A stretch of DNA of 11,138 bases from Fretibacterium sp. (lineage in GTDB: Bacteria; Synergistota; Synergistia; Synergistales; Aminobacteriaceae): contig JAFUYV010000061.1 of the NCBI GenBank assembly GCA_017476945.1, positions 1-11,138 of the forward strand, given 5' to 3'. This document shows positions 1 to 11,138 of this stretch, piece by piece (within the stretch, counting starts at the first letter, position 1; each line of letters starts with the position of its first letter). The notes beneath the pieces were generated by a model. That model was not told the origin of the DNA. It made no database searches and saw only the letters and a program-made list of their open reading frames with translations. Position numbers and translations under genes: made by a program.

Positions 1-837
<837 letters not shown>

Positions 838-857
838 AAAAAGACCTCTTTCTTAAG

Positions 858-900
858 CAAAATTCTCAAATTTTTCCTATAGCATTTATTGTTTCCGGTA
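858..900 (-). promoter_or_regulatory. Possible sigma70-type promoter for alaS (extended -10 TGcTATAGG with an upstream TTTACC). The match is weak.
   Basis: The minus-strand sequence is GGTTTACCGGAAACAATAAATGCTATAGGAAAAATTTGAGAATTTTGCTTAAGAAAGAGGTCTTTTTGATG. TGn-TATAGG sits about 45 nt upstream of the alaS ATG, but the -35 match is poor. Only 73 nt separate the toxin stop from the alaS start, which leaves no room for a T-box leader. Confidence 0.2.
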
Positions 901-910
901 AACCTCGCGC

Positions 911-1159
911 CTATGGCCCCAGCCAGACGACAAGGACAATCAAGACGTCATCCTTTATCTGGCAGACAAGGCGGTAATCCCCAACGCGATACTTCCAAAG
1001 GCCGGAAAGCGAACCACGGAGCGGCGCACCTTTTGTGCGGGGATTGTCGGATTCACGCAGACGCCGGACATACTGCCTGATACGTTCTCTTGCGGTTCTG
1101 TCCAACCTCAGAAGCGCGTCTTGCGCCTTCTCCTGAAACTCTACTTTCCATCGCGTCAA
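911..1159 (-). CDS. Type II toxin, RelE/ParE (RelE_StbE) family; the C-terminus appears truncated by a +1 frameshift
   Basis: ORF 911..1231 (-) contains (L)[81 protein letters not shown]. This aligns along its whole length with E. coli RelE (YFLDFDERALKEWRKL...KLRGMPDCYKIKLRSSGYRLVYQVIDEKVVVFVISVGKRERSEVY). The RelE fold begins at WKVEF, so I place the start at TTG 1159, although no clear RBS precedes it. The ORF stops after ...VVWLGP. The next frame continues with [10 protein letters not shown], which is the canonical RelE C-terminal tail. Confidence 0.6.
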
Positions 1160-1247
1160 GAGCGTCTGGCGTCCGGCGGCTGGCCCTGCTCTCGAGGGCA
1201 AGGCGATCCGGAATGTCCGGCGCAACCTCAAAGGTCATCTGCGGCAT
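1053..1247 (-). CDS. Putative RHH-type antitoxin (RelB/ParD-like). Its 3' half overlaps the toxin ORF, so the extent is uncertain.
   Basis: A strong RBS AGGAGG sits 7 nt upstream of ATG (complement of 1245-1247). That ATG overlaps the SPFH gene stop as ATGA, which suggests translational coupling. The N-terminus [35 protein letters not shown] fits a ribbon-helix-helix pattern (beta-strand TFEV, then a helix PDIPDRLALESRASRR). The remaining sequence, [27 protein letters not shown], overlaps the toxin frame by 107 nt and looks non-native. Confidence 0.35.
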   Translation of the reverse strand: MPQMTFEVAPDIPDRLALESRASRRTPDALDAMESRVSGEGARRASEVGQNRKRTYQAVCPASA

Positions 1248-2050
1248 CACTGCCCCTCCTTCGTGCCAAACGCCTTGTCGACAAACGGCTTGAGCAGGTC
1301 CATTGGGACGGGGAAGAACGTCGTGGTGTTGCGGTCGCCGGAGATCTCGCGGATGGTCTGGAGGTAGCGGAGCTGGAGCGTGATGGGGGAGACCTCCATT
1401 TGACGCGCGGCCTCGGAGAGCTTGGTGGCGGCCTGGAGCTCGCCCTCGGCGGAGATGATCTTGGCGCGGCGCTCACGTTCGGCCTCGGCCTGGCGGGCCA
1501 TGGCGCGCTTCATCCCCTCCGGCAGCTCCAGCTCCTTCACCTCCACGGCGCTGACCTTGATGCCCCACGGGTCGGTGCGCTCGTCGATAATCTTCTGGAG
1601 CTCCTGGTTGATCTTCTCGCGGGAGGACAGCACCTCGTCCAGCTCCACGGAGCCGACCACGGAGCGCAGCGTCGTCTGGGCAAGCTGGCTGGTCGCGACG
1701 ACATAGTTCTCCACCTCGACGACGGACTTGGAGGGCTCCAGCACTCGGAAGTACACGACGGCGTTGACCTTGATGGCCACGTTGTCCTTGGTGATGACCT
1801 CCTGAACGGGCACGTCCAGCGTCAGGATGCGCAGGTCCACCGTCACGGCCCGGTCAATGATGGGGACGATGAACACAATCCCCGGCCCACGGCTGCCCAC
1901 CAGCCGCCCCAGGCGGAAGAGGACCAGCCGCCGGTACTCCGGCACGATGCGCACGGCCATGGAAAGCACAAACAGCAGGATGAGCCCCGCCACGAACAGG
2001 CTGCCGATCTGGGAGAAGACGGACCCGATGTCGCTGATATCGATAATCAT
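1247..2050 (-). CDS. SPFH domain / band 7 family membrane protein (stomatin/prohibitin-like, QmcA-like)
   Basis: The translation [90 protein letters not shown]...[45 protein letters not shown]... contains an N-terminal TM helix followed by the canonical SPFH core. It is collinear with E. coli QmcA/YbbK. I place the start at ATG (complement of 2048-2050), with AGGGGGAG 8 nt upstream. The ORF-track start at 2110 lacks an RBS and would add 20 non-conserved residues. The stop is TGA at 1247-1249. Confidence 0.9.
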
Positions 2051-2081
2051 AAAGAACACTCCCCCTTCAAGATTTAAGCCA

Positions 2082-2099
2082 GGGGGGTCAGGACCCCCC
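2082..2099 (-). promoter_or_regulatory. GC hairpin (GGGGGGT-cagg-ACCCCCC) in the 5' leader of the SPFH gene. It could be an attenuator or a weak terminator.
   Basis: A perfect 7-bp G/C stem with a 4-nt loop lies between the candidate -10 (2126-2131) and the RBS (about 2058-2065). No clear U-tract follows it. Confidence 0.3.
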
Positions 2100-2125
2100 G
2101 CAACCTCCAAGTTGATATGCCGGTT

Positions 2126-2154
2126 ATTATAGTTGAAGGGGGCGCGGGGCGCAA
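2126..2154 (-). promoter_or_regulatory. Candidate sigma70 promoter for the SPFH-TA(-alaS) transcription unit: -35 TTGCGC, 17-nt spacer, -10 TATAAT
   Basis: The minus strand has a perfect TATAAT (complement of 2126-2131). TTGCGC lies 17 nt upstream of it (complement of 2149-2154). The pair sits about 75 nt upstream of the SPFH start codon. Confidence 0.35.
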
Positions 2155-2245
2155 AGAGCCGGAACGGTGCGCTGTTTCACAAGAAGCGAGGTTGGACGTG
2201 ACGGGTGCGGCCTCCGGCCAGGGCTCGGTTCCCACCCGTTTCAAC

Positions 2246-2297
2246 AGCCCCGCGGCGCGAGCGCTCGGATAAGCCCCGCGGCGTGAGCGATTAGATA
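2246..2297. repeat. Tandem direct repeat of 26 bp, two copies: AGCCCCGCGGCGCGAGCGCTCGGATA / AGCCCCGCGGCGTGAGCGATTAGATA
   Basis: This is seen directly in the sequence. 22 of 26 positions are identical. The repeat lies in the intergenic region between gene A and the SPFH gene and abuts the palindrome at 2299-2332. The GATA end of each unit also begins the palindrome arm GATATC. Confidence 0.55.
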
Positions 2298-2298
2298 A

Positions 2299-2332
2299 GA
2301 TATCCCGCCGCCTTGGAGGGCAGCGGGATATC
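2299..2332 (-). terminator. Putative intrinsic terminator or palindromic site downstream of gene A: GATATCCCGC-N14-GCGGGATATC
   Basis: A perfect 10-bp inverted repeat with a 14-nt loop lies about 55 nt downstream of the gene A stop (2388) on the minus strand. A moderately T-rich TTATCTAAT follows it. The U-tract is imperfect, so it may instead be a protein-binding palindrome. Confidence 0.35.
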
Positions 2333-2387
2333 CCATTTCAGGAGGTTTTATAACAGATTAGATCGCACTTGTAATGAATGTGCCCGT

Positions 2388-5366
2388 TTACCATCGCTTC
2401 AACAAGGCCGCGCCGCCCAGCAGGGCCAGCCCAAGAAGGCCGCCGCCCAGCCCCGCGTCGCAGCCGCCGCTGCCATTGTTGCTGGTTGGGCTTTTCACTG
2501 ACGTCTCCTCGACGGTGATGTACTGATTGTACGTCGTCCCACCCTCAAGGTAGGCCGCCACGTTCAGCTCCGACGTTCCGTCGTACTCCTTTCCGTCAAC
2601 GACGTTCCCCTCGGTGTCCAGGAGCACCGCCGGCTCGCCCGTGTCGCTGGCGCCCGTGTCGGTGTCGGTTGCCGCTGTTTTGACGTCGGCCTCATCCAGC
2701 TTGCGGACATAGACGTACGGCTTGTCCCCCTTGTTCAAGCCCTTTGGCTTGCCAAGGCCGATGACGTGGACGCCCTCGTTCACCGCGGTGAACGGCACAA
2801 AGACAACCGCCAGTTTCTCCTTGGCGTTGTTGGTGTTCTTGAGCCCCTTATCGTCCTCCAGGTTCTTCTTGATATCCTGGTAGACGTTTTCAAGCTTCTC
2901 GGTCTCCGCCTCAAAGGGAGGGATGTCCTGGGAGCTCGCGAAGATCACCGGGGCGTCCTTCTGCTCGCTCGTCAGATTCAACCCCACGTAGGCCGGGGCG
3001 CTCTTGAAGTCCTCCGAAGTGGCGTACTTTGTCAACTTTGGAGCGTCGGCCACCGTGGTGACCGTCACGGAGTCGTCATCGCCCAGGTCCAGCGTCGTGC
3101 CCTCCTCCACGGGGTCCTCCGCGGGGGCGTAGACCGTGATGTCCACAGCGTAGAAGTAGGACGGATCCGACGGGTCGTTCACCGCCGCAAGGCGATAGGT
3201 GTTCGAGCCCGACGAGGGGACCGCGAGGCTGGCCGCGGCATTGCCGTCCGAGTCAAAGACCTTCGCCATGTTGGCGGGCGTCACGGCCCACGTTACAGTG
3301 GCGCCTCCCGTCGTCCCGGTGAAGTTGATGGCCGTGGCGGCCTCCTGCGCGCTGACGTCAGTATAAGCCAGGGAGCTCAGCGTCTTGCCGCCCAGGTCCG
3401 CCGAGGCCGCGGGGGCCACCGTGACCTCAAAGGCCTTGGTGTTTGTGCCCTGGGTCAGGGTGATGGTGATGGGCGTGAAAGCCGAGGACGGGATGTACTC
3501 GAAGGCGCCGATGCTGGGGGCGTTGGCGTTGCGCGCCCTGCCAAGCTGGTCCACCGACGGAGCCCCGCTTCCGGCGCCGCCCCTGATGAGGCTGGCGTCA
3601 GCGTTGGTGAGCTTGAAGTACGTCTGCTCGACGTCGTTCACCGTCTCGCTGGCGGACGCGCGGCCGCTCCAGCTCAGGTCCGTCACGCAGTCCGTGCCGG
3701 TGAGGGTGGTCGCCCCGGCTCCGTAAGCGCAGTTCGTCAGAGTCAGCGAGCCGCCATTGTAGGTGTTGACGCAGGGGGTTTTCTCGTTCCAGAGGATCGT
3801 GTTGACCAGGTTCAGCGTGCCGGTGGTGCTGTAGATCTCCGCTCCACCCTCAGCGGCCGTGGCCGTGTTCGACACAAAGGTGCAGTTCACGACCTTCGCC
3901 GTATCCTTGGTGACGTTGTAGCCGCAGACCCCGCCGCCATAGGTGGCCGTGTTGTCCGTGAAGGTGCTGTTCGTCACCGTGGAGGTCAGCTTAGAGTCCC
4001 CGTCGTCACGGAGCATCAGGCCGCCGCCCAGGGTCTCCACGCCGGTCACCGCGGCCGCCTTGTTGCCCGTGAAGGTGCAGTTCTCCACCATCGAGGTCAG
4101 CTTGTCGGCATAGGCACTGTCGAACATCCCCGCGCCGTAGGTCTGCGCGTTGGGGTTTGCGCCGTCCGGGGCTGTGTTCCTGATCTCATTGCCCTCAAAG
4201 CGGCAGTTCGTCACCGTGGAGGTCACGGGGCCGCCCACGGCCTCGTTGCAGATGCCCGCGCCGTTCGTGTCCGCCGTGTTGCCCTTGAACGTGCAGTTCT
4301 CCACCGTCACGGTGAGATCGTTGCCCTTTGTTAACTCAGCGTTCGTCTGGCTGTTGGCGGTGCCGTTCCAAATTCCGCCGCCGGACCCGCCGAAGGCCTT
4401 CGTTCCGTCCTTGGCCGCAACCGCCTTGTTGCCCGTGAACGTGCAGTCCTTGACGGTCACCTTCAGGACGCAGGCCTCCCGGCACCAATTATAGAGGCCG
4501 CCGCCTATGCAGGCCTCGTTGGAGTCGAACGTGCAGCCCGTCACCGTCGTGGTCAGCTTGCCGCCGGAGTGGATGGCGAAGTTGGCCATGCCGCCGCCGT
4601 CGTACCAGTTGCCTTTGTTCCCATCCGCGGTCTTGTTTCCCTTGAACGTGCAGTTCGTCACCGTGATGTCGATCTCGCCGTTCTGCTCCTCTGCGAGAAT
4701 CTTGGTGTCAATGGTGCCGTTGTACATCCCGCCGCCGTTGAAGGCCGTGTTGTCCTCGAAGGTACAGTTCGTCACCGTGGGCTTGAGGACGGCGCTGGTC
4801 GCCGCGCTGTGGGTGTACATCCCGCCGCCGTAGCCGTAGGCGCTGTTGCCCTTGAACGTGCAGTCCGTCACCGCGGGGGTGTAGGCGCCGCTCTGGGTCG
4901 CCGCGATCGCCAGGCCGCCGCCGTTGGCCCACTCCATGTGGCCGTCCGAGACGCTGACGGTGTCCGAGGTGTACTGATTGTTCTCAAAGATACAGCCCGT
5001 GATCGTCGGGCTGGCGTCCTCCACGTAGAGCCCCGCGCCTCCGTAGCCGTTGGCCTTGCTGTTGGCCGTGGAGTTCACGACCCCGCCCGTGATGGTGAGG
5101 TTCTTGATGGTGGCGTCGGCCGTGCACTTCAGGATACGGACGCTGCCGTTGCCCGTCAGCTTGTGGCCGTTGCCGTCAAGGGTGAGCGCACGCGTCACGT
5201 TCAGCGTCTCCGTCACGGTGATGTCCGCCGTCAGGGTGACGGTGCTGTCCGTGCCGGCAAGGGCCGTCTTGAGCGCGTCAAGCGTCCCCACCTCCGCCGC
5301 CCAGGCCGGCGGGGCCAGGAGCGCGCACAGCGCCAGGAGAAAAACCGCAATCCGCTTCGTCTTCAC
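2388..5366 (-). CDS. Large secreted cell-surface protein (992 aa). It has a Sec signal peptide, an N-terminal right-handed parallel beta-helix with polymorphic-membrane-protein (Pmp)-type repeats, Ig-like domains, and a C-terminal Cys-containing sorting signal with a TM helix.
   Basis: The start is GTG 5366, with an AAGGAGG RBS 9 nt upstream. The N-terminus is MKTKRIAVFLLALCALLAPPAWA|AEV. The protein has more than 12 repeats of the form TVTNCTF(K/E/T)GN...GGG(M/L)Y, which match the FxxN and GG[AG][ILMV] Pmp motifs. The beta-helix ends in ...DQLGRARNANAPSIGAFEY. The C-terminus is ...SNNGSGGCDAGLGGGLLGLALLGGAALLKRW*. Codon usage is high-GC throughout. Confidence 0.9.
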   Translation of the reverse strand: MKTKRIAVFLLALCALLAPPAWAAEVGTLDALKTALAGTDSTVTLTADITVTETLNVTRALTLDGNGHKLTGNGSVRILKCTADATIKNLTITGGVVNSTANSKANGYGGAGLYVEDASPTITGCIFENNQYTSDTVSVSDGHMEWANGGGLAIAATQSGAYTPAVTDCTFKGNSAYGYGGGMYTHSAATSAVLKPTVTNCTFEDNTAFNGGGMYNGTIDTKILAEEQNGEIDITVTNCTFKGNKTADGNKGNWYDGGGMANFAIHSGGKLTTTVTGCTFDSNEACIGGGLYNWCREACVLKVTVKDCTFTGNKAVAAKDGTKAFGGSGGGIWNGTANSQTNAELTKGNDLTVTVENCTFKGNTADTNGAGICNEAVGGPVTSTVTNCRFEGNEIRNTAPDGANPNAQTYGAGMFDSAYADKLTSMVENCTFTGNKAAAVTGVETLGGGLMLRDDGDSKLTSTVTNSTFTDNTATYGGGVCGYNVTKDTAKVVNCTFVSNTATAAEGGAEIYSTTGTLNLVNTILWNEKTPCVNTYNGGSLTLTNCAYGAGATTLTGTDCVTDLSWSGRASASETVNDVEQTYFKLTNADASLIRGGAGSGAPSVDQLGRARNANAPSIGAFEYIPSSAFTPITITLTQGTNTKAFEVTVAPAASADLGGKTLSSLAYTDVSAQEAATAINFTGTTGGATVTWAVTPANMAKVFDSDGNAAASLAVPSSGSNTYRLAAVNDPSDPSYFYAVDITVYAPAEDPVEEGTTLDLGDDDSVTVTTVADAPKLTKYATSEDFKSAPAYVGLNLTSEQKDAPVIFASSQDIPPFEAETEKLENVYQDIKKNLEDDKGLKNTNNAKEKLAVVFVPFTAVNEGVHVIGLGKPKGLNKGDKPYVYVRKLDEADVKTAATDTDTGASDTGEPAVLLDTEGNVVDGKEYDGTSELNVAAYLEGGTTYNQYITVEETSVKSPTSNNGSGGCDAGLGGGLLGLALLGGAALLKRW
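5298..5366 (-). other. Sec signal peptide of gene A (23 aa, predicted AWA|AE cleavage site)
   Basis: MKTKR is followed by a hydrophobic core IAVFLLALCALLA and then an AxA site (PPAWA). Confidence 0.55.
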
Positions 5367-5401
5367 TTTGAAAGACCTCCTTATAAATATGAAAGAAACT
5401 T

Positions 5402-5459
5402 GCCCCGAAGGGCGAAAAGACCTTCAGGGGAACCCCCCGCGGCCTGAGGGCCGCGGGGG
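5402..5459 (-). terminator. Hairpins in the B-A intergenic region. One is an 11-bp GC stem (CCCCCGCGGCC-tgag-GGCCGCGGGGG). A small GCCC-cgaa-GGGC hairpin follows it, and then comes T-rich sequence. Together they form a probable partial terminator or attenuator.
   Basis: The large hairpin begins 15 nt after the gene B stop (5474-5476). On the minus strand the small tetraloop hairpin is followed by AAGTTTCTTTCATATTTAT, immediately before the gene A RBS. Confidence 0.4.
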
Positions 5460-5473
5460 AAAACGCCCATTCG

Positions 5474-8400
5474 TCAGCCCCGCTTCCTCGCCAGGACGGG
5501 GAGCAACAGCAGCGCCAGGGTCGGGAGCCCGGCCGCGCACCCGCCGCCATCGTTGTTGGAGGAGACATCGCTGTTCTCGCCGCCGTCCCTGTCCTCGTCC
5601 GCGGGCGCGCCCTGCGTGAGGGAGACGTCCATCAGGACCTCCGCGCCGTCCTCCTCAAAGCCCGTCCGATATTGATAGGTGACCGCAGCCGGGGCCGAGG
5701 CAAAGCTGGCAACGCCCGTCTCGACGTCATAGATGACCGCGATCTCCCCGCCCGCGCTGTTGTAGCCCACGACACCCGTCACGTTGTCAAAGTCCGACGC
5801 GGAGAGCCGCGCCAGGCCGGCGATCCGCACCGTGCCCGCTCCCTCGGCCGCAACGACGGAGGCGCGGGTGTAAGCGCCGATGCGCACCTGGAAGACGTCT
5901 CCCTGCCTCTGGAAAGACAGGTCGGACCGCTTCTGCCCGCCGCAGTCCAGCCGCGTCAGGTAGGGGAAGAGGCTGCGGGGGACAAAAAGCGCGGCAAGGC
6001 CGTTGCCCTGGCAGAACAGCTCCTGAAGCTGGCGGCAGTCGTCCAGGCCCTTCAGGCTTGTCAGCTTGTTCGTGGAGCACTTCAGGCTCGTCAGCGACTT
6101 GCACTCCCTCACGTTCAGCTCCCCCAGCTTGTTGCTGCTGACGTCCAGCTCCGTCAGGTTTGTGCAGCCGCTCACGTCCAGGGACTCCAGCGCGCCGCAG
6201 TCGTTGGCCTTCAGCTCCGTCAGGGACTCGCAGTCCGCGGCCTTCAGCTCCGTCAGTGCGCCGCAGTCGCTCACGTCCAGCGTCTTGAGGTTCTCGCTGC
6301 CGCTGGCGTCCACCTTCTCCAGCACGGGGCTGCCCTTGGCGTCGACGGTCTCCAGGGCCTCGCATCCGCTCACGTTCAGGGACTTGAGGGACTCATTGCC
6401 GCTGGCGTTCACCGCCGTCAGATTCGGGCAGTCCCTCACGTTCAGCTCCGTCAGCGAGGGCAGCTCGGAGCCCGACAGGTCCACCTCGGTGATGTTCTCA
6501 TTTGCGGAGACCTCCAGCTTCGTGACCTCCTTCGCCAGCGCCTCACCCAGGTTGGAGACGAACTCGCTCACGCTGCCCGCCGACGCGTCGACGGCCAGGG
6601 AGAGGCCGCCGCCCGCCTCGCCGCCTGAGGGGGACTTGATGGCAAACGTGACCGTCTTCTTCCCCACCCCGCCCCCGCCGGTGGCCGTGACCACCAACGG
6701 ATAGGTCCCCGCCTCCGCCGGCGTGCCGGTGATGGTGTGGGTCACCGGGTCGAAGGTCAGGCCGCCGGGCAGCCCGCTCACGCTCCAGGCGTAGGACAGG
6801 CCGGCGGGACTGGCGGCCAGGGACATCTGCCCGGAGTACGCCTCCCCCGCCGTGGCGGAGGACGGGTTCAGGCTCGCCTGCGTGACGGAGACCTCCGCTG
6901 GGTTGACGGTGAGGGACAGAACCGCCTCGTTGGAACTCTCCCCTTCCACCGCGGCCCAGGCGTAGATGAGGAAGGTGCGGTTCGCCGTGGGCCTGCCGGA
7001 GATGGAGAACACGTCACCCGAGATCTTGCAGGTCATGCCCTCCGGGACGCCGCCCAGGACCCATTCGTACGTCATGCCCTCCGGCGCGACGGAGAGAGCC
7101 TGAGTGGCCGAGTACTCCTGGCCCACCGTCGCGTCGGGCAGGACAACCTGCGCGGGCGAGACCGTTATATCCTTAACCTCCAGCTCCAGATCTCTGGAGT
7201 CCACGCAGAGGACGCCGCCGTTGGTGAGCTGGGCCTCCACGTGAACGGTGTAGATCCCAGCGTAAAGGGGTTTGCCGCCGAGGACCGTCGTGCTCGTCTT
7301 CCCGCTCAGCGTCGTTTCACTGAGCGACAACAGGCCCTTTTCCTTGGAGATGAGTCTGTCGCTGCCCCTCACCAGCCATTTCATACTGCGCCCTGAGTCG
7401 CCGGCCACGTCCGCCTCCAGCAACGTGGAATACTCAAGGCCCCTAATGGCCGGAGGAAGGGACGTCGTCGTGATGGTGACAGCTGGGTTGACGGTGAGGG
7501 TAAACGTCCTGGTGTCCGAGAAGGACACGCCGTCCTTGCTGGCCGTGGCCCTGACGGTGATGAGGTAGGTCCCGACGGGGGTCGGGTGGCCGCTGATCTG
7601 ACCTAAATACCTATCCCCATCCAAATTGCCGATCGTCAGCCCCTCGGGTAAACCCTCGGCTTCCCAGCGCACATCCAAACCGGATGGGACCGTAGAAACC
7701 CACAGCGGATCGTTATAAGAGCTGCCCTCCTGGGTCGATTGGTCCCCCATCGAACTGGTGATTGTAACGCTGTACTTCCCGACGCTCACCTCGCCCCTGA
7801 GCGTTACCATCATGGCCTCGCCGCCCGCCAAGGCGGCTTCCGCCGGGGCCTTCGTGTCGTAGCGATAGGTGATGGATGTTGGCGCCGTGCCGTCCGCGAA
7901 CACAGCGACGCCCGTCGTGCCGTCGTAGGAGACGGCGGGGGTGCTTCCGTTCCACAGCACCTGGTCAACCCGGTCCAAAGCGCCCAGCGAGGACTCGACA
8001 AAGCTGCTGAGGTGGACCACACTGTCCACACCGGTGGTGGAGACGGTCAAACCGTTGGGGCGCGCCTGGCCGGAATAATCCACCGTGGTCAGCGCCGTGT
8101 TCTCCTCCAGCGCCAGGGCCGCGAGCTGGTTGTCCGAGCAGTCCAGCGTCTCCAGGCTCACGCAGTCGCTCAGGTCCAGCTTTGGCAGCGCGTTGGCGGA
8201 GCAATCCAAGGATGTCAGGTCGGCACACCCGCTGAGGTTCAAAACGGTCAATTTATTGCCAGAGCAATCCAAGCGCTCCAGGTTCACGCACGCGCTCACG
8301 TCCAGACGAGCCAGCTCATTGCCGGAGCAGTCCAGCTTCCTCAGGCCCTCGCACGTACTGAGGTCCAGCTCGACGAGCCCGTTGCCGGAGCAGTCCAGCT

Positions 8401-11138
8401 CCGTCAGGCCCTCGCAGCCGTCCAGCTTCAGCGACGTCAGCGCATTGCCGGAGCAGTCCAGCACCTCCAGCTTTTCACAGCCGCTGGCGTCCAGCTCCGT
8501 CAGGTTTTCGCAGCCGGTGATCCTCAGCTCCTTCAGGTTCGGAAAGGCCGCCAGCCCGGAGAGGCTGGTCAGGTTCCCGCCGCCGCGGAACGAGAGGCTC
8601 TCGATTTTGTCCAGCTCATACCGCCCCGCGTTGTCGATGAGCTGCTGGAGGTTCGAGGCGGAGGAGTTCTCGACGTCCAGCGCCGTCCGCGCCGTGATGT
8701 CGATGTCCAGCCTGGCTGTGGTCTCCCCGCCGGCAGCCTTCGCCGTGGCCGCCGCCACGAAATTCCCCGACGCCTGCGGCGTGCCGGTGATGGTCAGCGC
8801 ATTGGCCGAAAAGCTCCCGCTCAGGCCCGCGGGAAGCCCGCTGACGCTCCATTGATAATTGGCCTCTGGACTTATCGTAAAGGTGGCGGCAGCCGTATAC
8901 TCCTTCCCCGCTGTCCCCGATGGCAGCGTCACGGATGCGGGGGTGATTTTGATGTCAGAACTGAGGAGGATGATGGTGTGAGTCAGCGTGGCTGTGCCCG
9001 TTCCGCCGGGGCTGGCGGCCGTGACGCTGAGGTCGAAACCGCCGAGCTTGTTGGGTGTGCCGGAGGCGCTGAGCGTTCCATCCTTGATGGAGTAGTTCAG
9101 GCCGTTGTCCGGTGCGCTTGTGATGCTCCAGGTATAGTTCAAGCCCGCAGGGTCCACGGTGAGGGCGGTGGACTCCGAGAAGAAATTGCCCATCGAACCG
9201 TTCTTCAGGGACGCCGTGATTTTGACGTCAGCAGGGTTAACGATAACCCTCAGATCCGCCGTGGAGGACAGGCCGCCATCGCCGGCCGGGGCCGTCACCT
9301 TGACCGTGAGGGTGTAATCGTCCGCCGACGTGGGCGTGCCGCTGAGGATGAGCTCGCCCGGAGTGGTTGTGAACTCCGCGCTCATACCGGGGATGTCCGC
9401 CTTCTCAACTGCCCAGGTATAATCGGCGTTTGAAAAGTTGTTGACGCTGAGGGAGGAGACGGAAAAGACGGCCTTCTCCGCCGTGTAGTTCGTCCCCGCT
9501 GTCAGCGTCATGCTGGCCGGAGCGGCGACTGAGGGCGCGATGATGAGCGTCAGCTCCTTTGACGTGCTGTTCTGGCTGCCCCCCTCCCTGGCTGTGGCCG
9601 TCGCCGTGAGCGTGTAGATCCCGCTGCCTTCTGGTGTGCCGGAGACAGCACCGGTGGCCGGGTCGAAGGTCAGTCCTGCGGGAAGGCCGCTGAGCTCACG
9701 GACAAGGGCGCCGCCCGCAGCGTCCATGTCCACGGTGGCGGAATACGCCTCCCCGGCCTGGCCGTTGGGGAGGGAGGCCGTCAAAATTTTGACGCCCAGG
9801 GGTTCCACGGCGCCGATGGTCGGGCTTTCGACGTTCCGGGAATAGCCAAGCTGATCCAAACCTACAATTTCTTCATCTACAATGTAATTTTCCGTACTGT
9901 TCTTGTAAAATTCAAATTCTTTTATGAACTCATTGAAATTCGCCACGCTCTCGCCTGTCAGGGGTTTAGAACCCTCCGTCTCCACCCCGACCACCTTGAA
10001 AACAGTGTGAGGGACCCCGTTCACCGCATATTCTTTCTCTTCAAGGCGACCGCTCGATATTGTCACGCACCCATCATCCAAAACAACGTTGCCAGAAGAA
10101 TTTACGATGTGCTCCACCGTATTAACCGCATTTGTCATAAAGGCACAATGTCTCGCCCGAACATAGTCTTTATTCTGTGCGTTCACACGTACATAAAACG
10201 GCTTCTCAGCAAACGCCCCCGTATTCCAGACATAAGAATTAATAAAAGGATGCAAATAGCCTGTCTCGTTAGAGTTCGAAACCCCGTTAGCGGAAATATC
10301 GGCTCCATATTGGGCGCGGTTCTCAACAAAGGAACATTGAACCACTTTCGTGTTCTTGTTATATTTGTCGAAAAATATTCCCCCTCCACCAGTTGTTTCT
10401 TTTGTGCCTGTCGCCTCATTTTGCGTGAAGGTACAATTGATGAACGCCGGCCCCCCATCCGCGTACACTCCGCCTCCACTTGTTCCAGCCCTGTTCCCCT
10501 TAAAGGTACACTGAAAAATTCCGAAGCTTCCCTGGCCAGAGTGTATTCCACCACCCTGTGACCCCGCCTCATTCTCAATAAAGGCGCAATTGACAATATC
10601 AGGGTAAGTGCCCGTGCCATTAATAGCCAGGCCTCCACCCGGTTTTTCGCTCTTATTTTCTCTAAAAATGCAGTCTCTTACTTCCGTACTGGCAAGCACA
10701 AAGTAAAGGAAAACGCCCCCACCCCGACTTTGGGTTCCCTTCGTAGCGTTTTTTTCAAAAATGCAACTTATCAACCTGAGATTGTTTCCCTTCGCCGCAT
10801 ACAATCCACCACCGCCTGCGGCGGCCAAGCCAATATTAGTTACATTATTGGAGAATTTACAGTTTATTACCTCCGGGGCACCGACGCCCCCGACATAAAG
10901 CCCGCCGCCATAAGTATTCGATGTTGCCGTAAGCTCATTATCTTTAAAAACGCACTGTCTCACCGCCGGGCTGGCGTCAATGATGTACATTCCTCCGCCA
11001 TAGCTGTTTTTATTGCCGCTACCGCCTACTGTCCCTGTTCCTCCCGTGATGGTAAAGCCATCAATGCGGGTGTTCTCCGGCGTCGCATCAGGGTCTGTGC
11101 AGGTGACGACGGAGAACGCGCCACCGTTTGCGTCCAAG
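5474..11138 (-). CDS. Giant cell-surface adhesin-like protein (more than 1887 aa; the N-terminus lies beyond the window). It has a Pmp-like beta-helix module, multiple He_PIG-type Ig-like domains, two 21-aa leucine-rich-repeat blocks, and a C-terminal Cys-containing sorting signal.
   Basis: The frame is open from the window edge down to TGA 5474-5476. The beta-helix repeats (for example NCKFSNN, GGGGLY, CIFEKN, CTFKGNRAGTSGGGVY) occupy about 9850-11138. He_PIG-like domains follow, for example SLPNGQAGEAYSATVDMDAAGGALVRELSGLPAGLTFDPATGAVSGTPEGSGIYTLTATA. The first LRR block, (LTELDASGCEKLEVLDCSGNA)xN, is at about 8090-8660, and the second is at about 5998-6530. The C-terminus is ...SSNNDGGGCAAGLPTLALLLLPVLARKRG*. 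Confidence 0.9.
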   Translation of the reverse strand, partial: LDANGGAFSVVTCTDPDATPENTRIDGFTITGGTGTVGGSGNKNSYGGGMYIIDASPAVRQCVFKDNELTATSNTYGGGLYVGGVGAPEVINCKFSNNVTNIGLAAAGGGGLYAAKGNNLRLISCIFEKNATKGTQSRGGGVFLYFVLASTEVRDCIFRENKSEKPGGGLAINGTGTYPDIVNCAFIENEAGSQGGGIHSGQGSFGIFQCTFKGNRAGTSGGGVYADGGPAFINCTFTQNEATGTKETTGGGGIFFDKYNKNTKVVQCSFVENRAQYGADISANGVSNSNETGYLHPFINSYVWNTGAFAEKPFYVRVNAQNKDYVRARHCAFMTNAVNTVEHIVNSSGNVVLDDGCVTISSGRLEEKEYAVNGVPHTVFKVVGVETEGSKPLTGESVANFNEFIKEFEFYKNSTENYIVDEEIVGLDQLGYSRNVESPTIGAVEPLGVKILTASLPNGQAGEAYSATVDMDAAGGALVRELSGLPAGLTFDPATGAVSGTPEGSGIYTLTATATAREGGSQNSTSKELTLIIAPSVAAPASMTLTAGTNYTAEKAVFSVSSLSVNNFSNADYTWAVEKADIPGMSAEFTTTPGELILSGTPTSADDYTLTVKVTAPAGDGGLSSTADLRVIVNPADVKITASLKNGSMGNFFSESTALTVDPAGLNYTWSITSAPDNGLNYSIKDGTLSASGTPNKLGGFDLSVTAASPGGTGTATLTHTIILLSSDIKITPASVTLPSGTAGKEYTAAATFTISPEANYQWSVSGLPAGLSGSFSANALTITGTPQASGNFVAAATAKAAGGETTARLDIDITARTALDVENSSASNLQQLIDNAGRYELDKIESLSFRGGGNLTSLSGLAAFPNLKELRITGCENLTELDASGCEKLEVLDCSGNALTSLKLDGCEGLTELDCSGNGLVELDLSTCEGLRKLDCSGNELARLDVSACVNLERLDCSGNKLTVLNLSGCADLTSLDCSANALPKLDLSDCVSLETLDCSDNQLAALALEENTALTTVDYSGQARPNGLTVSTTGVDSVVHLSSFVESSLGALDRVDQVLWNGSTPAVSYDGTTGVAVFADGTAPTSITYRYDTKAPAEAALAGGEAMMVTLRGEVSVGKYSVTITSSMGDQSTQEGSSYNDPLWVSTVPSGLDVRWEAEGLPEGLTIGNLDGDRYLGQISGHPTPVGTYLITVRATASKDGVSFSDTRTFTLTVNPAVTITTTSLPPAIRGLEYSTLLEADVAGDSGRSMKWLVRGSDRLISKEKGLLSLSETTLSGKTSTTVLGGKPLYAGIYTVHVEAQLTNGGVLCVDSRDLELEVKDITVSPAQVVLPDATVGQEYSATQALSVAPEGMTYEWVLGGVPEGMTCKISGDVFSISGRPTANRTFLIYAWAAVEGESSNEAVLSLTVNPAEVSVTQASLNPSSATAGEAYSGQMSLAASPAGLSYAWSVSGLPGGLTFDPVTHTITGTPAEAGTYPLVVTATGGGGVGKKTVTFAIKSPSGGEAGGGLSLAVDASAGSVSEFVSNLGEALAKEVTKLEVSANENITEVDLSGSELPSLTELNVRDCPNLTAVNASGNESLKSLNVSGCEALETVDAKGSPVLEKVDASGSENLKTLDVSDCGALTELKAADCESLTELKANDCGALESLDVSGCTNLTELDVSSNKLGELNVRECKSLTSLKCSTNKLTSLKGLDDCRQLQELFCQGNGLAALFVPRSLFPYLTRLDCGGQKRSDLSFQRQGDVFQVRIGAYTRASVVAAEGAGTVRIAGLARLSASDFDNVTGVVGYNSAGGEIAVIYDVETGVASFASAPAAVTYQYRTGFEEDGAEVLMDVSLTQGAPADEDRDGGENSDVSSNNDGGGCAAGLPTLALLLLPVLARKRG
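8130..8462. repeat. Intragenic tandem repeats with a 63-bp period (at least 6 units) encoding the 21-aa LRR units of gene B
   Basis: The 18-mer TTGCCGGAGCAGTCCAGC, or close variants of it, recurs at 8130, 8193, 8256, 8319, 8382 and 8445, exactly 63 nt apart. Confidence 0.7.

Follow-up and report, generated by a model that had tools for sequence, protein, structure and literature searches.

A compositional step inside a conserved beta-helix cap motif of a Fretibacterium surface protein gene, and the case for a probable mosaic origin

Gene B is a giant surface protein gene, partial here, on the minus strand of an 11,138-nt stretch of DNA (the window), which is an entire contig (JAFUYV010000061.1) of an uncultured Fretibacterium sp. 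metagenome-assembled genome (MAG) from a short-read metagenome. Within its coding sequence, and without change of reading frame, it passes from a low-GC head to a high-GC body, and the change lies inside the conserved motif that caps the beta-helix of the head. The step is real and highly significant. The initial annotation of the window, made from its letters, had described a sharp drop in GC in the head relative to the GC-rich rest of the gene, and this is borne out (48.6% against 65.5%; log-likelihood ratio, LLR, 114.5), with both of the DNA strings quoted in its support present where it placed them. That gene B is a genuine mosaic gene of ruminant-gut Fretibacterium (Synergistota), with a head derived from a donor of ~45-50% GC, is considered moderately probable. 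The features on which the argument turns are as follows.

5474-11137, minus strand: gene B, a partial open reading frame (ORF) with its N-terminus off the contig
5474..9844, minus strand: high-GC body of gene B, with Pfam He_PIG, LRR_4 and LRR_EndoS matches and a GC content at third codon positions (GC3) of 0.865
5480..5548, minus strand: Synerg-CTERM sorting signal of gene B (GGGCAAGLPTLALLLLPVLARKRG), TIGR04564
9803..9856, minus strand: C-cap motif D-Q-L-G-Y-S-R-N-V-E-S-P-T-I-G-A-V-E (aa 428-445), which holds the junction, from alignment to gene A and the family
9820..9853, minus strand: support interval of the compositional breakpoint (codons 428-439), the 2-log-likelihood interval of the GC3 changepoint
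9845..11138, minus strand: low-GC head of gene B (codons 1-431 of the partial ORF), GC 0.486, GC3 0.50, its 5′ end beyond the contig
9857..10270, minus strand: orphan C-terminal part of the head (aa about 290-427), low in GC and aligning only to the corresponding region of gene A
10022..10024, minus strand: internal GTG, the start of gene B in the public annotation (P0121, 1516 aa, beginning MNGVPHTVF)
10298..11080, minus strand: predicted right-handed parallel beta-helix (gene B aa about 20-280) with Chlamydia-PMP-type repeats, from an AlphaFold2 model and PF02415
2388..5366, minus strand: gene A, a beta-helix surface protein gene used as internal control for composition and motif

By direct count the GC content is 0.486 for 9845-11138, 0.655 for 5474-9844 and 0.643 for 1-9844. 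The sliding-GC and codon comparisons which the initial annotation proposed as a check on its claim agree with it: in 300-nt windows GC drops from 0.62-0.69 to 0.45-0.53 past about 9850, and synonymous codon usage in the head departs from that of the six neighbouring genes with chi2 = 519 (41 degrees of freedom, p about 4e-84). The drop is mostly synonymous. At the first, second and third codon positions respectively, the low-GC module has GC contents of 0.505, 0.447 and 0.502, the body of gene B 0.588, 0.515 and 0.865, and the helix of gene A 0.512, 0.528 and 0.915. The shift is seen in all synonymous families, as illustrated by lysine AAA (0.60 in the head and 0.09 in the background), isoleucine ATC (0.17 and 0.83) and arginine AGA (0.33 and 0.01), and the proportion of FYMINK residues is 0.30 in the head of gene B and 0.24 in the helix of gene A.

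A likelihood changepoint analysis of GC3 finds one step, at codon 432, and its LLR of 114.5 compares with a maximum of 9.3 in 200 permutations. The transition is abrupt and has no gradient: GC3 is about 0.33 over the last 30 codons ahead of the step and rises to about 0.86 over the 28 that follow it. A second changepoint at the extreme 5′ end, with a GC3 of 0.79 over 24 codons, is not significant for the first 24-31 codons (about 11065-11137; permutation p = 0.08). GC3 is 0.79-0.93 in the six other genes of the locus, where every 50-codon window is at or above 0.70. Gene A has a GC3 of 0.894 and a lowest 50-codon window of 0.80, so that the description of its beta-helix module as GC-rich throughout was correct.

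The support interval of the step, D428 to P439, falls within the last conserved motif of the helix (DQLG..R....P.IGA.E), 8-19 codons before the first He_PIG domain, which begins about aa 447. The switch had earlier been placed in frame at the junction of the beta-helix and the immunoglobulin (Ig)-like domain; it is in frame, but the boundary itself is inside the cap motif and not at the domain junction. The copies of the motif in gene A (VDQLGRARNANAPSIGAFE) and gene B (LDQLGYSRNVESPTIGAVE) have identical spacing, and the consensus of a 46-sequence alignment ends in '...D..G..R.....VDMGA.E', the family form of the cap being '...D..G..R.....(V/I)(D)(M/I)GA.E'. NF041518 (choice_anch_Q, cut-off 25 bits) has no match in gene B aa 350-462 and gives gene A a weak 21.2 bits, under the cut-off, yet the cap in gene B is visible both by eye and in the 46-sequence alignment. 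Because the step is inside the cap, the high-GC side retains its second half, implying that a head of this beta-helix family was present in the resident gene beforehand. A junction within a conserved cap also implies that the exchange, whether real or artefactual, was guided by homology. That it stands at the homologous position of a motif common to gene A and the whole family favours a mosaic gene.

The junction is also carried by a second assembly record, L001 (14,643 nt; ENA ERZ28654714, 'XIEF21-1_SAMN15829993_METAG-scaffold_6090'), together with the same 328 nt of its low-GC side. L001 is 99.92% identical to window positions 1-10173, with 7 substitutions and 1 indel, and reaches 4.5 kb past window position 1; combined, the two give 15.6 kb of known sequence. 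Neither contig has any N. Both stop inside the low-GC head, L001 at 10173 and the window at 11138, which is 328 and 1294 nt past the junction. A repeat search of the window revealed none involving the head that could explain the join or the contig ends.

The head of gene B is live coding sequence, with a stop-free frame, a confident beta-helix model and PMP repeats. Its frame runs for 431 codons without a stop, an outcome with a probability of about 1e-11 by chance in DNA of such composition; the two alternative frames are interrupted by 17 and 34 stops. With phmmer it matches PMP-repeat beta-helix proteins at E = 1e-42 to 1e-115 and at most 43% identity; the matches number in the thousands, come from a wide range of phyla, belong to the right-handed beta-helix proteins with PMP repeats (PF02415, PF13229) and cover essentially residues 5-290 only. 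The Pfam model PF02415 (Chlam_PMP) passes with 22.6 bits, in 3 stretches, against a cut-off of 20.6, and TIGR01376 (POMP_repeat) is just under its cut-off of 15 with 14.9. The head is modelled as a parallel beta-helix: in the AlphaFold2 prediction from the 46-sequence alignment, aa 20-280 form regular three-strand rungs with a per-residue confidence (pLDDT) of 84-98, residues 290-455 have a pLDDT of about 30, and there is an Ig-like sandwich at 466-533. In a Foldseek comparison of the head model with the PDB the top matches were all beta-helix proteins, but owing to low confidence over 40% of the model none reached significance (best E = 0.057). Set against the family consensus, the partial ORF lacks ~110-130 residues at its N-terminus, the signal peptide among them, which would be encoded past the contig end.

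With its PMP-type repeats, modelled beta-helix and terminal D..G..R.....IGA.E cap, the head resembles the PMP-repeat or 'choice-of-anchor Q' beta-helix proteins (PF02415, PF13229; NF041518). It is unlike them in that NF041518 misses its cap, that its last 140 residues are without a homolog, and that it is fused to He_PIG and leucine-rich repeat (LRR) modules and a Synerg-CTERM anchor. A dedicated search with residues 290-446 alone found no homologs, and in an exhaustive search the best matching stretches rarely go past about aa 310. The BLASTP high-scoring pair between the head and gene A extends through to the DQLG motif, and the ~140 orphan residues keep a weak motif-level likeness to gene A (N..(I/V)WN, FK(L/V)). 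The helix modules of genes A and B are 27-31% identical, no closer than that of gene B is to proteins of other phyla, and 'paralogous', as they had been termed, is a loose description.

In the public annotation gene B starts at the internal GTG. The resulting protein, P0121 ('MAG: putative Ig domain-containing protein [Fretibacterium sp.]'), matches the body of gene B at 100% identity; its start drops 371 in-frame beta-helix codons, so that the surface protein as recorded has no signal peptide. The atypical low-GC region was probably rejected by the gene finder.

The high-GC body is native, since its tail is a Synerg-CTERM sorting signal, specific to Synergistales, and its codon usage is that of its neighbours (it has the same GC3 as the flanking housekeeping genes alaS, ruvX and Band_7). 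The tail has the invariant Cys, a Leu-rich transmembrane segment that contains a Pro, and a cluster of Arg/Lys residues, and scores 27.4 bits with TIGR04564 (cut-off 22.5) as an isolated 35-aa sequence and 20.3 bits in the full-length protein. The Synerg-CTERM family is confined to Synergistales, including Fretibacterium (Haft, bioRxiv 10.1101/2023.06.07.544157). In passing the model on its own the tail of gene B is like the known Synerg-CTERM proteins, a feature of the native C-terminus which is silent on the head. The body is internally duplicated, with He_PIG Ig-like domains, an LRR block and a beta domain each present twice and the sorting signal last; the LRR periodicity is 33/63 nt and the repeat units contain Cys ('LxxLDCSGNxL'). 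The tail of gene A (SGGCDAGLGGGLLGLALLGGAALLKRW; 2391-2495, minus strand) has a Cys, a transmembrane segment and a basic end but no Pro, and TIGR04564 misses it; it may be a divergent sorting signal.

If gene B is a mosaic, the events in the cell would have been a replacement of the following kind. A donor with a GC content of ~45-50% would have contributed DNA coding for a homologous beta-helix surface protein, and this DNA, once in the cell, would have displaced the resident head up to the first half of the terminal cap motif. The downstream crossover would have been in the cap motif (DQLG..R....P.IGA.E), by short homology or by homology-facilitated illegitimate recombination, and selection would have kept the in-frame product with a single intact cap. 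The protein would thereby gain a different ligand-binding head while keeping its Ig/LRR stalk and its Synerg-CTERM anchoring. On this account the transfer is recent, as the synonymous sites of the head are essentially unameliorated. Of the earlier proposal of module replacement from a lower-GC donor, the foreign-looking composition, the in-frame switch, the junction in a conserved motif and its recurrence in two assemblies all stand; no donor came to light in the collections searched.

Mosaic genes for surface or target proteins are well known products of interspecies recombination, homology-facilitated illegitimate recombination included, with pneumococcal pbp2x and pbp2b and Neisseria penA and tbpB as classic cases. 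In these the donor and recipient are congeners, the DNA differs by a few to 20%, and the donors have been identified. Like them, gene B would have had part of its resident sequence exchanged for homologous DNA of a different lineage, with a sharp in-frame boundary and a breakpoint in a conserved stretch. Unlike them, its segments are 17 GC points apart, no donor can be named, the head has at most 43% protein identity to anything known, and the junction is known here from metagenome assemblies and not from an isolate. The event, if real, is of an ordinary and well-known kind, and nothing mechanistically new has been demonstrated.

Several points weigh against a mosaic gene, and the first concern relatives. 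In no collection searched is there a close relative of the head (above 43% identity), and no donor can be named. The best identity of the 432-aa head was 39% against 5.8 billion proteins, 43% in an exhaustive HMMER search of 1.84 billion cluster representatives (of 15 billion proteins), 32% in a DNA-level scan of 185,579 GTDB species genomes and 37% in a DNA-level scan of JGI metagenomes; plasmids and phages gave no match. The best matches, at 26-43% identity, are from Planctomycetota, Chloroflexota, Cloacimonadota, Hydrogenedentes, Synergistota (Aminivibrio, 33%) and others, and carry no taxonomic signal. No ortholog of the body was found, its sole match being the gene's own truncated database entry, and a cluster look-up returned gene A as a singleton. 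Comparing the best-hit taxonomy of the two segments and looking to close relatives, as the initial annotation recommended, was thus uninformative. As neither a donor nor a close counterpart of either segment came to light, there is no test of phylogenetic incongruence and no 'before' state. Equally, the suggestion that an adhesin cassette was swapped between strains received no direct support, as there is no donor, no relative above 43% identity and no ortholog of gene B.

The remaining points concern the assembly, and they count at the same time for the foremost alternative, which is unlikely on balance but has to be taken seriously: a chimera, already named as the alternative in the initial annotation, in which a Fretibacterium gene supplied the 3′ part and a homologous beta-helix gene the 5′ part, the assembler having linked them through a short word that both have in the cap motif. 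The partner would be a lower-GC organism of the same samples, or another gene on a low-GC island of the same genome, and the junction would exist in no cell. The sequence is a short-read metagenome contig from a de Bruijn assembly (MEGAHIT/IDBA-UD in the likely source study), and benchmarks of this kind of assembly rank inter-species translocations as the most frequent type of error (bioRxiv 10.1101/2021.06.22.449514). Contig ends 328 and 1294 nt past the junction, both within the low-GC head, are the pattern expected of a poorly covered foreign partner. The sequence upstream of gene B is beyond the contigs, and a return to 65% GC past the head is not demonstrable. The window and L001 assemblies may use the same or overlapping samples of one study, with reads in common, and so are not fully independent. 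A join at a homologous motif could also be produced by a shared k-mer, with the frame then kept automatically; the GC3 of the head has zero amelioration; and the public annotation leaves the head out of the gene. In its abrupt change of composition, near the end of a short-read contig, gene B resembles the inter-species translocation misassemblies of the metaMIC benchmark.

Against a chimera, a de Bruijn join requires an exact shared word of at least 21 nt, and with gene A, the one paralog available for comparison, the sole exact runs that gene B has in common at the motif are CAGCTTGGC (9 nt) and CATCGGCGCC (10 nt). The longest word common to 9701-11138 and the rest of the window is 12 nt. 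For the genes that would have been joined, protein identity is typically about 30% and the GC3 difference 0.37, and a long shared word between them is unexpected unless the DNA was recently exchanged. Assemblers normally break at a node with two paths in and two out, whereas here two assemblies with different single-nucleotide polymorphisms (SNPs) cross it identically; the junction is not absent from the other assembly, as L001 spans it without change. No low-GC organism with this module was met at the DNA level in the 185,579 species genomes or the JGI metagenomes, and searches covering 5.8 to 15 billion proteins gave no complete gene that has this head. Unlike misassemblies of the metaMIC type, the join is in frame at a homologous motif, is repeated in a second assembly and has no demonstrable long shared repeat.

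An improbable further explanation, which is a special case of a mosaic gene and matches the cassette exchange suggested in the initial annotation, is that co-existing Fretibacterium strains have different head cassettes on the same stalk and recombine them at the cap motif, the contig ends then reflecting the branching of alleles in the assembly graph. Both contigs do end within the head, the breakpoint is in a conserved motif, and the 6 SNPs in 276 nt (6422-6697) between near-identical assemblies show recombination or strain patches in gene B. Allele branching at the junction should, however, break contigs at 9845 and not past it, and no second allele came from any collection searched. Nor does the known 15.6 kb have an alternative head or any feature of programmed variation, whether silent cassettes, inverted, direct or flanking repeats, an invertase or recombinase, or the reverse transcriptase of a diversity-generating element. 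A broader version, doubtful to a similar degree, takes the head as an exchangeable cassette shared by the community, such that beta-helix heads of very different genomic origin are swapped at the cap motif onto a constant Ig/LRR stalk with its Synerg-CTERM anchor; several co-existing heads would explain why both assemblies break inside it. A fall of GC in place, under selection or a mutation bias confined to the 5′ part of the gene (through expression control or targeted hypermutation, for example), is highly improbable, having nothing specific in its favour besides the lack of a donor; such drift or hypermutation is rejected on the knife-edge boundary and the genome-wide style of the codon shift, which extends over at least 1.3 kb, affects all synonymous families and raises FYMINK residues too, in a locus where the equivalent head of gene A is GC-rich throughout and no diversity-generating element is nearby.

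The locus itself has, in order and all on the minus strand, gene B, gene A (MBR1671699.1, locus tag IJ702_02105, Fretibacterium sp., by exact look-up), Band_7, alaS, ruvX and a Na/Ala symporter gene, and the 15.6 kb neighbourhood includes a 112-aa ORF besides. alaS starts at 836 (minus strand) and runs off the window start; the 410-nt spacer upstream of it (window 836-1246) has a lower GC content, about 0.52, and contains no Rfam family or tRNA gene. None was found anywhere in the window, and so there is no integration-site signature. Long ORFs on the opposite strand (3-803, 2766-4334 and 7739-9433, all plus, and others) are non-genes of the kind usual in 65% GC DNA. From the names of the records, the likely source is the study of ruminant gastrointestinal MAGs by Xie et al. 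2021, in which short reads were assembled with MEGAHIT and IDBA-UD (PMC8199421). A look-up with Band_7 found short contigs only, in two further records; at least two or three sequencing samples contain the organism.

The differences between the window and L001 are unevenly placed. Six of the eight lie in the 276 nt of gene B at 6422-6697, where the second LRR block meets a He_PIG domain, and the remaining ~9.9 kb holds two; the cluster suggests a patch of strain-level recombination or an alternative path through near-repeats. The single indel is one base after a C-run at window position 2099, in the intergenic stretch that separates the stop of gene A from the start of Band_7, where the window has CCCCCC-G and L001 CCCCCCTG. 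It is either a true polymorphism or an error in the window assembly. A further record, L013, has one gap difference from the window.

Whichever explanation holds, the deposited protein record of gene B is truncated and lacks the whole beta-helix head and the signal peptide. Should the join be an artefact, it would show that composition steps near the contig ends of MAGs need read-level checks before they are interpreted. If gene B is a mosaic as favoured here, it would be a clean and unameliorated cross-lineage replacement of a module in an adhesin-like protein from a phylum that has been little studied, and would mark recent gene flow into ruminant-gut Fretibacterium. With its crossover confined to 12 codons within a conserved structural motif, it would then provide a case for how surface proteins gain binding heads.

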